Origin: Chthoniobacterales bacterium
Lineage (GTDB): Bacteria; Verrucomicrobiota; Verrucomicrobiia; Chthoniobacterales; UBA6821
Direction: 5' to 3'
Length of the DNA stretch: 41,762 nt
Assembly: GCA_044326465.1 (NCBI GenBank)
Contig: JBIRBD010000001.1
Span: 1 to 41,762, forward strand
Shown here: positions 3,850 to 41,762 of the stretch, in pieces
How the letters are laid out: each line of letters begins with the position of its first letter
Numbering within the stretch: the stretch's first letter is position 1
The notes under the pieces: generated by a model
Told to the model about the DNA's origin: nothing
Seen by the model: the letters and a program-made list of their open reading frames with translations, nothing else
The model's database searches: none
Made by a program: the position numbers and the translations under genes

Positions 3850-3885
3850 AAGAAATATTCTTTTAAAATTTGACCTTCATTGGAC

Positions 3886-4102
3886 GTAATTGCTCATCTC
3901 CTTCTGATCAAGAAGAGGAGCAAAAAGTTGTCGGTTGTTAGTTGTTTTTATTCGAAAAATTTATTTTTTAAGAGTCGCATTTTATTAGCCTCTTAGGGCG
4001 ATACTTTTTTTTAGCAGCTAAGAAAAAGTTATTTCTTTACTATCAAGCGAGAACCAATAACCAACAAGCATTGCTTATTTTCAGAAGGAGATGAGCAATT
4101 AC
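3886..4102. mobile_element. MITE family B, copy B1 (217 bp)
   Basis: It has perfect 21-bp terminal inverted repeats, gtaattgctcatctccttctg (3886..3906) and cagaaggagatgagcaattac (4082..4102). It is flanked by the 8-bp direct repeats cattggac (3878..3885) and cgttggac (4103..4110), matching 7/8. It aligns along its whole length to 18880..19091, and there is no ORF. Confidence 0.85.
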
Positions 4103-4153
4103 CGTTGGACAAGCTTTATATACCATTCGTGCGTGCGCCAGCCGCTATGGTTT

Positions 4154-4786: not shown

Positions 4787-4957
4787 TTAAACCTAAAAAC
4801 GTGAATCAAAATAAAAATTTTGACGCAATATAGTCGGCCTGAAGCGGTTCGTTCTAAAGCCTCACTAACCATGCAGGTTAGCCACGGCTTCATAACAACC
4901 AGCTTCCAATCCAACTCCTTACGCCAACGTTCTCATTTTCATTCACGTTTTTAGTAA
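4787..4957 (+). repeat. Family A palindromic element, divergent subfamily copy (A4, 171 bp)
   Basis: Its termini, ttaaacctaaaaacgtgaat ... attcacgtttttagtaa, include a 14-bp perfect inverted repeat and are the same as those of A1-A3. It has the same length, a shared gacgcaatat block and an equivalent apical hairpin (ctaacc-atgc-aggttag). Confidence 0.7.
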
Positions 4958-11673: not shown

Positions 11674-11688
11674 GTCTGGCTTGTGGAA

Positions 11689-11858
11689 TTAACCTAAAAA
11701 CGGCAATGGATCGTTATAAATTAGCGCAATATGCTCAGCCTCAAAATGATTTTTCAACCGGCTCACGTACCTTCCAGGTATGCTTCGCCGTTTTAAAAAT
11801 CACTTTTAGACCAAGCCTTTACGCTAATTTATTAACTCCCATCACCGTTTTTAGTTAA
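11689..11858 (+). repeat. Family A palindromic element, copy A1 (170 bp)
   Basis: Its termini are ttaacctaaaaacggcaatgg ... ccatcaccgtttttagttaa. The left half pairs with the right half along the whole element (for example gttataaattagcg / cgctaatttattaac), with the apical hairpin tacct-tcc-aggta. It is ~97% identical to 41634..41762. Confidence 0.85.
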
Positions 11859-13379: not shown

Positions 13380-13383
13380 AAAA

Positions 13384-13536
13384 GGAATTGAAGTGGAAAG
13401 TTGAAGTAGAATTTGGAATATCAGCTGAGTGCAAAATTACTGGAAAAATTCAACGTTGATATTAAGTTGATGTGCCAGACGGCAAGAACTATCTTCGTTT
13501 TAAATTACTTCAACTTCAACTTTCAACTTCAACTTC
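13384..13536. repeat. Inverted 6-7-nt array pair filling the cbpA/serS divergent spacer
   Basis: The left arm is ggaattgaagtggaaagttgaagtagaattt (13384..13414). The right arm is aaatt(acttca)(acttca)(actttca)(acttca)(acttc) at 13502..13536. The arms are reverse complements in several registers (gaaagttgaag / cttcaactttc is perfect), and the core is 87 nt. Confidence 0.75.
13467..13495 (+). promoter_or_regulatory. Candidate serS promoter inside the array core
   Basis: TTGATG (13467..13472), a 17-nt spacer and TATCTT (13490..13495). This would start transcription at about 13502, making the C-rich right array the whole serS leader. It rests on a pattern match only. Confidence 0.3.
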
Positions 13537-13545
13537 TGCATTCAA

Positions 13546-17049: not shown

Positions 17050-17115
17050 GTCGTGATGATAGTGAAAATAATGACAAAGGACAAAAACAAAGGCTCTGTT
17101 TTAAAAGTAAAAAAA

Positions 17116-17160
17116 GTTGAGGGGTTGAGGGGGTGCTGCCAAACCTCTCTCTCCCTCAAC
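17116..17160. repeat. GTTGAGGG / CCCTCAAC octamer hairpin
   Basis: gttgaggggttgaggggg (17116..17133) faces cctctctctccctcaac (17144..17160) across a 10-nt loop. The G-rich arm is 5'. Confidence 0.65.
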
Positions 17161-17172
17161 TTCGCAATTAAA

Positions 17173-17296
17173 GGGGTTTGAGGGGAAAAAAGTTGAGGGG
17201 GTGAGCATATTACGTTAATTTGTCACGATCCATTGCCGTTTTTAGATAGCCCCTCAACCTCTCAACAGCGACTTTAGTCGCGACTCAACCCCTCAA
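17173..17296. repeat. Composite: G-rich octamer arm + inverted family-A left-end fragment + module D (D2)
   Basis: 17173..17201 is ggggtttgaggggaaaaaagttgaggggg. The reverse complement of 17202..17245 equals ctaaaaacggcaatggatcgtgacaaattaacgtaatatgctca, a family A left end truncated after atatgctca. 17250..17296 is cccctcaacctctcaac-agcgactttagtcgc-gactcaacccctcaa, which is module D in reverse. It ends 8 nt before the purH ATG. Confidence 0.7.
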
Positions 17297-17304
17297 TTTT
17301 TTTT

Positions 17305-18837: not shown

Positions 18838-18879
18838 AATATCTCTGAAAGCAGTGTTAAGGTTATTCATCCTCTGGTT

Positions 18880-19091
18880 GTAATTGCTCATCTCCTTCTG
18901 GCGAAGAAGACGAGCAAGAAGTTGTCGGTTGTCGGTTGTTCGAAAGATTTTTTTTTTAAAAATCCTATTTTATCAGCCTCTTAGGGCAACGCTTCTTTTT
19001 TAGCAGCTAAGAAAAAGTTATTTCTTCACTACCAACCGAGAACCGAGAACCAATAACCATTGCTTATCTCCAGAAGGAAATGAGCAATTAC
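18880..19091. mobile_element. MITE family B, copy B2 (212 bp)
   Basis: The TIRs are gtaattgctcatctccttctg (18880..18900) and cagaaggaaatgagcaattac (19071..19091), matching 20/21. A perfect 8-bp target-site duplication ctctggtt sits at 18872..18879 and 19092..19099. The element fills the purH/aspS convergent spacer and ends 8 nt from the aspS stop codon. Confidence 0.88.
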
Positions 19092-19099
19092 CTCTGGTT

Positions 19100-20872: not shown

Positions 20873-20896
20873 AAAATCTAGTTTGGAGTTTAGCCC

Positions 20897-20997
20897 CAAT
20901 GCCGTCAACTTAAGGCGTTAAGTGACGGCAAGGGGTTCAGGTGACAGGGTTATAGGCTACAGGTAAGTAGGCCTACGGCAAAAAGAAAAAAATTTAT
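20897..20997 (+). repeat. Family C element, copy C2 (distal end missing)
   Basis: The sequence begins caatgccgtcaacttaag-gcg-ttaagtgacggcaagggg, in which gccgtcaacttaaggcgttaagtgacggc (20901..20929) folds as a 12-bp stem with a 1-nt bulge. A heptamer run follows (ggttcag gtgacag ggttata ggctaca ggtaagt aggccta), then cggcaaaaagaaaaaaatttat. It is collinear with C1 and C3 up to that point. Confidence 0.65.
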
Positions 20998-28751: not shown

Positions 28752-28948
28752 AAAAAACGAGACTATAGCCAAAAGCCGAAGAATTAGGACAAAAAGATGC
28801 CAAATTTTGAGATTGCAAAGAACCTTATGCTCTTGTTTGCAAGGCATCAAGCTTGGGTGAAGTTTTCTCGTAGCGTGAGAGCCTTCCTGGGTTCTCTCAG
28901 TTTATGATTGATCCCACTTCCTTCATCATCGCATACTGTCTTGCTGCT

Positions 28949-29120
28949 TTAAGCTGAAAACGGCAATGGATCGTGGTAAGTTAACGCAATATGCTCAGGC
29001 TCAAAATAAATATTTAACCGGTTTACCTACCCATTGGGTATGCTTCACCGTTTTAAAAATTATTTTTAGACTAAGCCTTTAAGTTAATTTTATCACTCCC
29101 ATCACCCTTTTTAGGTTTAA
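28949..29120 (+). repeat. Family A palindromic element, copy A2 (172 bp, diverged)
   Basis: ttaagctgaaaacggcaatggatcgtggtaagttaacgcaatatgctcagg ... cactcccatcaccctttttaggtttaa is collinear with A1. Substitutions in the left arm are mirrored in the right arm. Confidence 0.8.
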
Positions 29121-29153: not shown

Positions 29154-31769
29154 ATGTACCACCAAAACGAAAAAGTAGAGCTCATCGATGTTTCTGAGGA
29201 AATGTCGCGGTCCTTCCTCGACTACTCCATGTCGGTTATTATTTCGCGGGCACTTCCTGATGCGCGCGATGGTCTCAAACCCTCCCAACGACGTATTCTC
29301 TACGCCATGCATGAGCTCGGTGTCATGCCGACACGCAAACATCTTAAATGCGCAAAAATCGTCGGTGAGACGATGGGTAATTATCATCCTCACGGCGATC
29401 AAGCAATTTATCCAACGCTTGTTCACATGGCACAGCGTTGGGCGATGCGTGAGACATTGATCGAAGGTCAAGGAAATTTCGGTTCTGTAGAAGGTGATCC
29501 TCCAGCCTCAATGCGTTATACGGAAGCTCGTCTGAGGCCGCTTGGCGCGTTGCTCATGGAAGACATGGAACATGACACAGTGAACTTTGTTCCAAACTAT
29601 GATGATACACGAGAAGAGCCAACCGTCTTTCCTGCGGCATTCCCAAATCTTCTTGTTAATGGTGGTACTGGTATTGCTGTTGGTATGGCAACAAACATGC
29701 CGCCTCATAATTTGAGTGAAGCGATCGATGCAATTTGTGCGCAAATTGATCAGCCCGAAATCACGCTCGATGAGATCATGCACTTTATGAAAGGGCCTGA
29801 CTTTCCAACGGGTTGTCAACTCTGTGGCGTCACTGGTATTCGTCAATATTTTGAGACGGGACGCGGTTCAGTGAAGGTTCGTGGTCGTGCTGGTATTGAA
29901 GAAATCAAAGGCGGTCGTGAGCAAATCGTCATCACCGAAATTCCGTACAACGTCAATCGCGCAACACTAGTTGAAAAAATTGCAGGACTTGTTAACGAAA
30001 AAACAATTCCAGAAATCAGCGCGATTCGCGATGAATCGGATGAAAATACGCGCGTCGTTGTGGAACTGAAACGGGATGCGATTCCAAAAGTCGTCATCAA
30101 TAATCTTTACAAGTATACCGCGCTGGAATCCTCCTTTTCAGTAACAATGCTGGCGATTGATCGTGGTCGTCCAAAACTTCTCTCGCTCAAAGAAGCAATT
30201 GCATGCTTCATTGAACATCGTCGTGAAGTAATCTTGCGCCGCACCCGTTTTCTTTTGAATCAGGCAGAAGCGCGGGCCGAGAAACTCGAAGGTTATCTCA
30301 TTGCACTGGCTAACATCGATCAATTCATTAAGATCATTCGTGATTCCGTCAACCGCGAGGAAGCAAAAGTAAAATTACTTGCGTTTGAATTTACGAAAAA
30401 ACAAGTCGAGCATTTTGGAATTTTTCTGCGTCATGCAGAGCGTTTGACCGACGGCAGCTACTTGATGAGTGAGGCGCAAGTCGATGCAATTTTAGAACTA
30501 CGCCTCTATCAATTAACCGGTCTCGAGCGTGATAAAATCATCGCGGAATATACGGAGTTGTTAAAAGTTATTGCCGACCTCATCGATATTTTAAATAGTG
30601 AGGAGCGGGTGCTTAGCCTGATGAAATCAGAGCTTTTGGCAATCAAAGCAAAACATGGTCGTCCACGGTTAACCGAAATTATTTCTCAGGAAGGAGAAAT
30701 TTCTATTGAAGATCTTATTGCTAATGAAGGCTCGATCATTACTATCACGCATAAGGGATTTATTAAACGGACGGCCGTAAGCTCCTATCGCGCGCAGAGG
30801 CGCGGTGGCAAAGGCGTAATTGGCATGACAACGCGCGAGGCTTCTAGTGAAACAGATGAAGATGATTTTGTAGAACATCTTTTCACCGTGAGTACCCACG
30901 ACTATTTAGTGTTCTTTACCAAGAGTGGGCGCTGTTACGTTGAGCGTGTTTATGAAATTCCAGAAATGAGCCGTACCTCAAAAGGCCGCTCCATAGCCAA
31001 TATCCTTAATCTACAGCCAGGTGAGAAAATTGCAGCGACATTGCGCATTCAATCCAAAAACAGCGGTGGCGTTGGTGCTGTCGATACGACGTGGGATCCG
31101 AATTTTCACATCTTCTTTGCAACTCGTAGCGGTATTGTTAAAAAATCGAACCTTGGTGATTTTGCAAACATTCGCAAAGGAGGGATCATTGCCATTCAAA
31201 TTGAAGAAGGAGATGAGCTCATTAACGCTGTCCTCACTAACGGTCACGATGAAGTGGTGCTCGTCACCAAAGAAGGGCAAAGCATTCGTTTTAGTGAAGA
31301 AGAATTGCGCGATCAAGGACGCAACACCGTTGGAGTCTGGGGTATCCGTCCTGCAAAAGGAGATACGCTTGTCGCTATAGCCATCGTTTCCAATGATGCC
31401 ATGTTGCTTGTTGCCGGCGAAAATGGTATCGGCAAGCGGACAGTATTTGATGATTATCGGACGCAATCACGGGGAGGCAAAGGAATTATCACCATGAAGA
31501 CTGGTGATAAAACAGGTCTTGTCGTTGGTGCCTTGGCGGTTACTAATCATGACGAACTGATGCTAATTACAACCGGCGGCCAAATGGTCCGAACGCGTGT
31601 TGCCGAAATTCGCGAAACAGGCCGTAATACCATGGGCGTAAAATTAATTAATCTTCACGCTAGTGAAAAACTTCAGGCAATTGCTAGGGTTGTAAGTGAA
31701 ATAGAAGATAGGAAATCGGAGATAGAAGATAAGAGATCGGAGATAGAAGATAGGAGTATTGCTTCGTAA
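29154..31769 (+). CDS. gyrA: DNA gyrase subunit A
   Basis: [45 protein letters not shown], the active-site RYTEARL and C-terminal beta-pinwheel repeats are present. The last 21 codons are a 3 x 21-bp repeat ([21 protein letters not shown]). Confidence 0.96.
31698..31760 (+). repeat. 3 x 21-bp tandem repeat (heptamer-based, G/A-rich) forming the gyrA C-terminal tail
   Basis: The three units are gaaatagaagataggaaatcg, gagatagaagataagagatcg and gagatagaagataggagtatt. Each is 3 x 7 nt, so the array stays in frame. Confidence 0.85.
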
Positions 31770-31898
31770 GACGATTACAATCTCATCATTTATCAACAAT
31801 CTGTTGCTTTATCATTTATCCTAATTTTTATTTGTGATGAGTATACATCAGTCGCATTTGATTTTTAGGTTTTGTTAGTATTAGATTTCGTAAAAAAA

Positions 31899-31923
31899 CT
31901 CCTATCTTCCATCTTCTATCTCC
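31899..31923 (+). repeat. C/T-rich array complementary to the gyrA tail repeat, 6 nt upstream of the secA ATG
   Basis: The reverse complement of ctcctatcttccatcttctatctcc is ggagatagaagatggaagataggag. It gives 13 contiguous bp plus 9 bp of complementarity to 31739..31756. 31891..31929 contains no G. Confidence 0.8.
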
Positions 31924-31929
31924 TAATTA

Positions 31930-37420: not shown

Positions 37421-37459
37421 AAGAAGGTATCCGTTTTTTAGGTTAAACGTTGAAAAAAA

Positions 37460-41335: not shown

Positions 41336-41465
41336 TTTAGCGTGATCGCTAGTGGGAGTCGAAGTAAAAAAACCTAAAACTCGCACGCAAATGGTACATC
41401 TGATGAATATTCACCATATTGTTCCAATATGCTTTAACTGATGCAAAATAGGGATGGGTAACCCT

Positions 41466-41595
41466 CAATGGTATCAACTTAAGGAAATAAGTGACGGCAA
41501 GGGGCTAGAGGCACCAGGTTTGAATAGGTCTTCGACAAAAAGAAGAGAATATAGTTAACACATTTTCTCTTAAGTTGACGGCATTATGTGAACGA
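41466..41595 (+). repeat. Family C palindromic element, full copy (C3, 130 bp)
   Basis: The order is caatggtatcaacttaagg-aaa-taagtgacggcaagggg, then gctagag gcaccag gtttgaa taggtct, then tcgacaaaaagaagagaat..., then tcttaagttgacggcattatgtgaacga. The two ends are inverted repeats (caatgNNNtcaacttaag / cttaagttgacggcatt). Confidence 0.7.
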
Positions 41596-41633: not shown

Positions 41634-41762
41634 TTAACCCTAAAAACGGCAATGGTTCGTTATAAATTAGCGCAATATGCTCAGCCTCAAAATGATTTTT
41701 CAACCGGCTAACGTACCTTCCAGGTATGCTTCGCCGTTTTAAAAATCATTTTTAGACCAAGC
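41634..41762 (+). repeat. Family A palindromic element, copy A3 (truncated by window end)
   Basis: Its 129 nt align with A1 (11689..) with 3 substitutions and 1 single-base indel. Confidence 0.85.

Follow-up and report, generated by a model that had tools for sequence, protein, structure and literature searches.

Family A, a dispersed hairpin repeat of about 163 bp in Verrucomicrobiota: a probable MITE with signs of a pairing constraint on one strand

The closest precedent for the repeat described here, Family A, is bcr1 of the Bacillus cereus group. According to those sections of PMC3184786 on which we draw, bcr1 resembles Family A in being about 155 bp long, non-coding, dispersed in intergenic DNA and flanked by 5-bp direct repeats, in being present or absent between strains, and in carrying compensatory changes that keep a folded single-stranded structure; bcr1 is transcribed, and there the compensatory changes were interpreted at the RNA level. 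The same sections mention neither strand-asymmetric fixation of wobbles nor an orientation bias with GC skew, whereas Family A has both. The Correia/NEMIS, ERIC/IRU and RUP elements (PMC3184786, PMC2229807) likewise share with Family A their TIRs and a target duplication; they too measure 100-170 bp, lie between genes and are predicted to form a long stem-loop. Correia elements, however, duplicate TA, while Family A has a strict 5-bp W-T-N-A-W duplication and unrelated ends. Neither an IHF site nor a functional promoter is so far known in Family A. Two further systems bear on what follows. The IS200/IS605 elements depend on folded single-stranded DNA of one strand, as Family A may, and have a replication-biased orientation (PMC3971601, PMC5027513), but they have no target-site duplication (TSD), no TIR, subterminal hairpins and a Y1 transposase, whereas Family A has a TSD and true TIRs; replication-linked orientation bias is documented for several IS families (PMC3971601). 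REPs, in the portion of PMC3733652 that we cite, are sequences of 20-40 bp with GTAG/CGTC tags.

Family A, a repeat of roughly 163 bp, had been reported as a whole-length hairpin in an earlier note on the stretch of 41,762 nt analysed here, which as a whole we call the window. All four copies were confirmed at the coordinates claimed for them (A1, 11689-11858; A2, 28949-29120; A3, 41634-41762; A4, 4787-4957), and the window contains these four, A3 being cut by the window end, and one truncated copy (Table 1), at a density of roughly one copy per 10 kb. An independent repeat finder recovered the copies, with 98% identity between A1 and A3, 81% between A1 and A2, and complementary arms in each; a 39-nt degenerate left-arm pattern matched exactly the five left arms in the window, for a chance expectation of 0. 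Rechecking the difference between A1 and A3 gave the same 3 substitutions and 1 indel that had been counted before. A4, although of a different subfamily, is still a full hairpin, and its subfamily is widespread among other Chthoniobacterales MAGs. The inverted left-end fragment was real, but the 44 nt allotted to it was too short, the match extending over 60 nt at 82% identity (or 44 nt at 89%). A supposed solo right terminus at 37431-37446 did not hold up: it is a 16-nt near-match only, without a covariance model match, and is treated here as a chance match; CTAAAAACG-like 9-mers occur near the chance level (23 found, 15.5 expected). The gene context (frr, encoding RRF; gltB and gyrA; a TolB-like gene and an OmpA/Pal-like gene; yajC) was as described.

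Table 1. Positions of Family A copies, their junctions and other repeats within the window
Feature	Position	Strand	Description
A1	11693..11855	(-), better-folding strand	full length; covariance model 152 bits on - against 69 on +
A1 junctions	11688-11692; 11855-11858		left TSD copy ATTAA; right imperfect, TTAA, ~2 nt missing
Invariant motif in A1	11725..11733	(-)	TATATTGCG, in A1 subfamily CATATTGCG; + strand of A1 reads CGCAATATG
A2	28953..29115	(-)	83% identity to A1; covariance model 125 bits
A2 ends			mutated, GCTGAAAACG…CCTTTTTAGG; several pairs broken
A2 TSD	28948-28952; 29116-29120		perfect 5-bp TTTAA
A3	41638..41762	(-)	cut by window end; covariance model 97.7 bits on the truncated copy
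A4	4792..4954	(-)	different subfamily (cluster 12); 61% identity to A1; covariance model 156 bits
A4 junctions	4787-4791 (left)		left flank TTAAA; right junction imperfect
Truncated inverted copy	17186..17245	(+)	first 60 nt of left arm only; among GTTGAGGGG/CCCCTCAAC short repeats
Second repeat family	3881-4108; 18875-19097		about 215 bp
Inverted ends of second family	18880-18904; 19067-19091		25 nt
Third repeat family	1-28; 169-257; 220-247; 20894-20995; 41463-41504	both orientations	around CCCCTTGCCGTCACTTAA
Inverted repeat near gyrA	31713-31928		about 200 bp; GGAGATAGAAGATAGGAG… and complement
Inverted repeat with short units	13383-13537		GTTGAAG and GTTGAGGGG units and complements
Short units around truncated copy	17100-17300		GTTGAAG/GTTGAGGGG units

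The window holds other repeats as well (Table 1). The two copies of the second family are 82-88% identical and have inverted ends, and this family is probably another MITE. One copy of the third family lies directly upstream of A3, and the inverted repeat near gyrA fills the spacer from the end of that gene to the next. Short GTTGAAG and GTTGAGGGG units and their complements recur in intergenic DNA; they surround the truncated copy of Family A, and similar units flank copies in other genomes (L009, L033, L037, L041).

One scan of species-representative genomes and one of metagenomes, the latter constrained only in the two ends, of 14 nt each, and in overall length (143-173 nt), gave 110 copies, of which 98 were non-redundant and had usable flanks. 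The element proper runs from CCTAAAAACG to CGTTTTTAGG and is 159-164 bp in size, with hairpin arms throughout and no transposase gene inside. A perfect 5-bp direct repeat was present outside the ends of 61 of the 98 copies, compared with 0-1 copies for direct repeats of length 3, 4 or 6-9. The consensus of the duplication is W-T-N-A-W, with T at position 2 in 61/61 and A at position 4 in 60/61 perfect TSDs, and 21 different 5-mers were found duplicated among the copies (for example TTTAA, TTAAA, ATTAT, TTGAA, ATAAT and ATAAA); within the window the TSD is clean at A2 only, the right junctions of A1 and A4 being imperfect. This corrects two claims of the earlier note. The "TTAA termini" of an element of 170-172 bp are part of the 5-bp TSD, the element itself being about 163 bp, and instead of TA or TTAA targeting, the insertion-site analysis gave the 5-bp W-T-N-A-W duplication. 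C and G stand directly outside CTAAAAACG…CGTTTTTAG in 91/98 copies. The TIR is roughly 15-17 bp long, CCTAAAAACGNGAATGG pairing with CCATTCNCGTTTTTAGG, and its first 9 pairs are invariant across 49 copies. A 3-bp TNA duplication combined with a longer TIR was considered and excluded, since 13 perfect TSDs have non-complementary outer bases (e.g. ATAAA, four times) and the duplication length peaks sharply at 5.

True copies in the genome scan came from 8 species-level Verrucomicrobiota MAGs (labelled Chthoniobacterales, Chthoniobacter, Spartobacteria or "Verrucomicrobiia"), and the metagenome scan found copies in 105 stretches from soil and freshwater metagenomes; the total set comprises 96 independent insertion loci, and copies are almost all intergenic. 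Proteins of the window are 72-77% identical to proteins on the copy-bearing MAG contigs, which places the window in that group as well. A distribution across phyla, which matches in Bacteroidota and Planctomycetota had seemed to indicate, was rejected: 16 of the 46 loci of the first genome scan were false, 11 of them tracing to a single coding gene that is conserved (ggatt[t/c]aa[t/c]acaacaCT[A/G]AAAACGGTAAT…) and the remainder isolated chance matches. Viral contigs gave 0 matches to Family A, and a search of plasmids with an AT-rich and a GC-rich copy matched nothing. The literature search found no paper on this element or on MITEs of Verrucomicrobia, and searching with the terminal 10-mers gave unrelated primers only.

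Relatives were compared at the A1 site. The element is absent downstream of frr in L153, L154 (frr 92% identical) and L135; in all three the DUF4174 gene comes immediately after frr. The spacer between these genes measures 63 bp in L153 and L154 and 234 bp in the window, while in L135 the ORFs adjoin; the difference in spacer length equals the element plus its duplication, the intergenic sequence being too diverged for the exact empty site to be read. In a further observation, a short-read assembly of the same organism (L001, Logan contig SRR21875704_10386603) ends at locus position 2329, just inside the left end of A1, and this break indicates that the repeat fragments assemblies of these genomes.

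The features of the TIRs, the TSD, mobility, host range and intergenic location, taken together, make it very probable that Family A is a MITE, that is, a non-autonomous DNA transposon. The MITE option of the earlier note is thereby borne out, by the TIRs, the 5-bp TSD in 61/98 copies, the many dispersed copies in several species and the relatives without the element at the A1 site. To go by the TIR and TSD alone, a DDE-type transposase presumably acts in trans; it would recognise the TIRs and make 5-bp staggered cuts at W-T-N-A-W targets, so that each insertion would come to lie between two copies of a duplicated 5-mer. In the flanking DNA that was fetched, about 0.9 Mb, we found no partner transposase and no autonomous IS with matching ends, nor an IS1380-type transposase or a full-length IS with Family A ends, and the examination of these flanks for paired ends 0.2-5 kb apart, solo ends and ORFs of at least 200 aa repeated across loci turned up nothing convincing. 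Members of IS1380, as the family is defined in ISfinder, have ends beginning with CC and 4-5 bp duplications that are often A+T-rich; ISEcp1 has the IRL CCTAGATT… and a 5-bp duplication, and the target of piggyBac is TTAA. Family A and IS1380, on that ISfinder definition, have in common the CC ends, a TSD of 4-5 bp and an A+T-rich, TTAA-like target. IS1380 has been treated as a prokaryotic relative of piggyBac (PMC10813416), and its members carry outward promoters (PMC9330008). From the likeness in CC ends, TSD length and target flavour, the IS1380 family or piggyBac superfamily is a possible parent of Family A, which we offer as a lead only; the parent may instead belong to another family with 4-5 bp duplications. 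A candidate outward promoter in Family A, TTGAAA-18-CATATT, was discarded, since A1 alone has it, no more than chance would produce, and A4 lacks it.

Family A belongs to a wider superfamily with common ends, a central ACC-N4-GGT and a length of about 161 bp. The copies fell into about 22 clusters at 80% identity, and their lengths peak sharply at 159-164 nt within the allowed range. The A+T-rich clusters, including both subfamilies of the window, are whole-length hairpins, yet several G+C-rich clusters, which agree with them in their ends and in the central ACC-N4-GGT, form no whole-length hairpin; in these a stem of 17-26 bp closes the ends and the interior holds small hairpins, one of which (CCAUYGC-GGA-GCRAUGG) covaries and has its wobbles on the same strand. 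The existence of same-end sister families of this kind implies that whole-length palindromy is not needed for recognition of the ends. It had been suggested that the arms are kept complementary by the transposition mechanism; this cannot be upheld, given that sisters agreeing in termini and in length do not form a hairpin over their whole length and that the pairing constraint is strand-specific, the latter speaking against a double-stranded mechanism as the source of the constraint.

Some copies depart from the usual length at the apex of the hairpin. The apex has repeatedly been interrupted or extended (L044:3552-3866, L007:1-213, L045:5940-6178, L010:6931-7120, L040:4653-4815); the L044 copy is a 315-nt composite, and the apical insert of L045 has inverted ends of its own. 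The loop may be a preferred insertion target, or it may be the sole place where insertions are tolerated. Others have lost the apex symmetrically and are still hairpins, with lengths of 108-109 nt (L016:7378-7486, L031:3526-3634, L043:1654-1761) or 73 nt (L029:437-509, L065:1438-1510); a perfect 5-bp TSD flanks both of those 108-109-nt derivatives that could be checked (ATAAT in L016, TTGAA in L043), and such shortened derivatives may still have been mobile.

We examined the pairing of the arms in the palindromic copies. As the earlier note had claimed, the left half pairs with the right half in every copy to give a whole-length hairpin; folding of the + strand compared with shuffled sequence gave z = -8.5 for A1, z = -8.9 for A4 and z = -3.2 for the decayed A2. 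The invariant TATATTGCG motif (Table 1) lies opposite GCGTAARG of the other arm, its first bases being unpaired in a conserved internal loop. Covariation was assessed in an alignment of 49 distinct copies representing about 10 palindromic subfamilies, with 50 consensus pairs. The pair cells were paired in 96.0% of cases compared with 85.1% in partner shuffles, none of 500 shuffles reaching the observed value, and 23 pairs had changed on both sides; the covariation score was 0.336, compared with 0.146 in the shuffles and at most 0.092 where partners were slid by 1-3 columns, although the consensus structure was derived from the same 49 sequences, so that the test leans towards itself. The check by covariation on aligned copies thus came out above both the shuffled and the slid-partner controls.

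Comparison of single copies was in keeping with a difference between lineages and insertions. Between A1 and A4, both members of 8 pairs had changed with pairing retained, and 1 had broken; between A1 and A2, such double changes with retained pairing numbered 3, and 6 changes on one side only had broken a pair, from which we conclude that A2 is decaying. The mirrored changes pointed out earlier between A1 and A2 are therefore real but few, amounting to these 3 pairs, and they are differences between subfamilies. Selection on the hairpin, the second option of the earlier note, is supported by the covariation as acting along the lineages that spread; it is not seen on individual inserted copies, in which private mutations are symmetric and of which A2 is decaying.

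The palindromic families could also have been made by fold-back duplication of one arm, with no selection on the hairpin at all; the compensatory changes would then represent separate subfamily births or arm-to-arm conversion. Related sequences can indeed beat shuffle controls without any structure, and sisters with identical ends that are non-palindromic make palindromy an acquired state, as this explanation would have it. The slid-partner control, however, preserves relatedness and still did not exceed 0.092 where the observed score was 0.336, and the same asymmetric internal loop and register occur in the subfamilies, which indicates one imperfect palindrome as their ancestor and not separate fold-backs. 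We therefore regard an origin without selection as unlikely.

Selection along the spreading lineages appears to concern one strand. In all palindromic subfamilies, each copy folds better on one strand than on the other, by 10-33 kcal/mol, and for A1-A4 the better-folding strand is the minus strand of the window (for A1, -81 versus -54 kcal/mol). The asymmetry is kept with DNA parameters (-42.8 versus -31.7 kcal/mol), and because of this RNA and single-stranded DNA are not separable by energetics. Its source lies in the transition mismatches between the arms: with few exceptions these are G·T on the better strand, and hence A·C on its complement. When 11 family consensus sequences were aligned arm to arm in a strand-neutral way, 82 G·T and 18 A·C mismatches were counted, and the five families with at least 4 members gave 36 versus 8; counted as distinct positions, the 11 consensus sequences gave 30 G·T versus 13 A·C (p = 0.014), a moderate statistic once ascertainment is removed, in which some wobble positions are common to subfamilies by descent. 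Pairs defined by RNAalifold gave 16:2 for shared G·U versus A·C against 10:12 for singletons, a count biased by the failure of RNAalifold to call pairs in columns rich in A·C. The recount, which used strand-neutral symmetry pairing, gave 25 versus 10 for states in at least 3 sequences and 15 versus 22 for private states (Fisher p = 0.01). The mutational input thus looks symmetric, and the states kept in multiplying lineages are biased to pairing on one strand. We think it somewhat more probable than the contrary that pairing of the hairpin is constrained on one strand only, and in propagating lineages.

Were there no selection, the wobble asymmetry would have come from one ancestor or from strand-biased deamination. 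Wobble positions common to many subfamilies (for instance those at 34, 37 and 45 of the arm, which occur in 6-8 of 11 consensus sequences) are what a single ancestor would leave; yet 14 of the 30 wobble positions occur in a single consensus and many are specific to a subfamily. Deamination can be judged from the orientation of the copies, which we compared with the skew of the DNA around them.

Read in the direction of the better-folding strand, the flanks show negative GC skew at 42 of 57 independent loci (p = 0.0005), and this strand accordingly tends to be the C-rich one of the DNA around the copy; skew measured over a few kb serves only as a proxy for the direction of replication. When the skew was divided into components, the coding-strand component was about 0, and the component common to genes on both strands, which is replication-like, was negative in 25/36 loci. 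The split was 39 versus 15 for palindromic families and 5 versus 5 for the few non-palindromic copies with long flanks; the bias was also heterogeneous, being 30:6 for metagenome loci (L048-L152) against 12:9 for MAG loci (L002-L047) together with the window. A1, A3 and A4 appear to be in the minority orientation by window-wide skew, which was directly confirmed for A1 only. That orientation tracks local GC skew is thus suggestive. Deamination would require the wobble-rich strand to be the exposed, G-rich strand (of leading-strand sequence), but the strand observed tends to be C-rich; the relation to skew is opposite to the prediction and argues for selection over mutation pressure.

A constraint specific to one strand and an orientation bias with GC skew are both described for IS200/IS605 (PMC3971601), and Family A might on these grounds be the relic of a single-strand (HUH/Y1) transposon, either an IS200/IS605-type palindrome-associated element or a REP/RAYT-type repeat. 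This is very improbable, since the TSD contradicts it: 61/98 copies are flanked by a 5-bp duplication of variable sequence, and the TIRs are true ones. Direct reading of the ends of A1-A4 revealed no evident GTAG/CGTC tag, and the bias is opposite to the simplest expectation, the better strand not being the lagging-strand-template strand.

A more serious rival is that the hairpin functions as RNA, as has been proposed likewise for bcr1, ERIC and Correia elements; it would serve as a terminator, an mRNA stabiliser, an RNase III target or a small RNA, and the better strand would be the selected transcript. Tolerance of G·U with avoidance of A·C is the classic signature of RNA, the covariation is strong, and the G+C-rich sisters keep their covarying CCAUYGC-GGA-GCRAUGG hairpin with wobbles on the same strand. 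Each strand of A1-A4, read directly, consists of an A-tract, a hairpin and a T-tract and resembles a bidirectional terminator, and the transcription and RNA-level compensatory changes reported for bcr1, in the sections of PMC3184786 referred to above, provide a precedent. A better strand transcribed by the host as RNA should nevertheless be co-oriented with neighbouring genes, and it was not preferentially so: the ratio was 15:21 with respect to adjacent co-directional genes, without significant bias, and 30:45 with respect to the coding majority within 6 kb, if anything the reverse of the expectation. Furthermore, the flanks differ at every copy, which leaves no conserved upstream promoter for the whole hairpin, and the single internal promoter-like match is at chance level and absent from A4. 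The symmetric private mutations and the decay of A2 mean that the host does not keep single copies folded. The Rfam check that had been proposed matched no structured-RNA family: at gathering score and at E ≤ 10 only tRNAs were returned for the window, A1 and 16 loci, and the best sub-threshold match was to a plant miRNA model, with 28 bits against a gathering score of 149. We consider the RNA explanation possible but doubtful.

The constraint may instead reflect how Family A spreads. The interior of the A+T-rich families is one long imperfect hairpin whose pairing would be kept, along spreading lineages, on one strand; G·T(U) wobbles would accumulate on that strand and mirror-image A·C mismatches would not, while inserted copies would decay symmetrically. 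If this is so, one strand may be single-stranded at some stage, or be acted on as though it were, in a way that matters for propagation. We lean, tentatively and with less than even confidence, to single-stranded DNA, be it at the fork during replication or in an intermediate of transposition, as the relevant state, over a functional RNA, on the grounds that the orientation is linked to skew and not to genes and that the whole hairpin has no conserved promoter. Carried one step further, spread by a DDE-type transposon may need the one-strand hairpin as a transposition substrate besides the ends, with copies piling up in the orientation that leaves the strong hairpin unexposed; we put this forward as a rather unlikely extension. 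Should it be true, the element would form a hairpin from one strand during a single-stranded phase, such as passage of the replication fork or a copy-out intermediate, and its movement would be a hybrid of classical cut/copy-and-paste and single-strand transposition. To our knowledge such a hybrid has not been described for bacterial MITEs, and we know of no DDE transposon that needs a strand-specific whole-length hairpin.

Family A is new for Verrucomicrobiota and ordinary in kind as a MITE, though its hairpin seems to be preserved on one strand only. As far as our search goes, it represents the first characterised MITE superfamily of Verrucomicrobiota; it is abundant and breaks short-read assemblies, and it is worth knowing for annotators and binners. 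With about ten diverged subfamilies that have the same ends, some of them palindromic and others not, it also provides a natural data set for the question why many bacterial MITEs are whole-length hairpins; pairing on one strand, in propagating lineages only, and an orientation that tracks skew make that question testable by a mobilisation assay.
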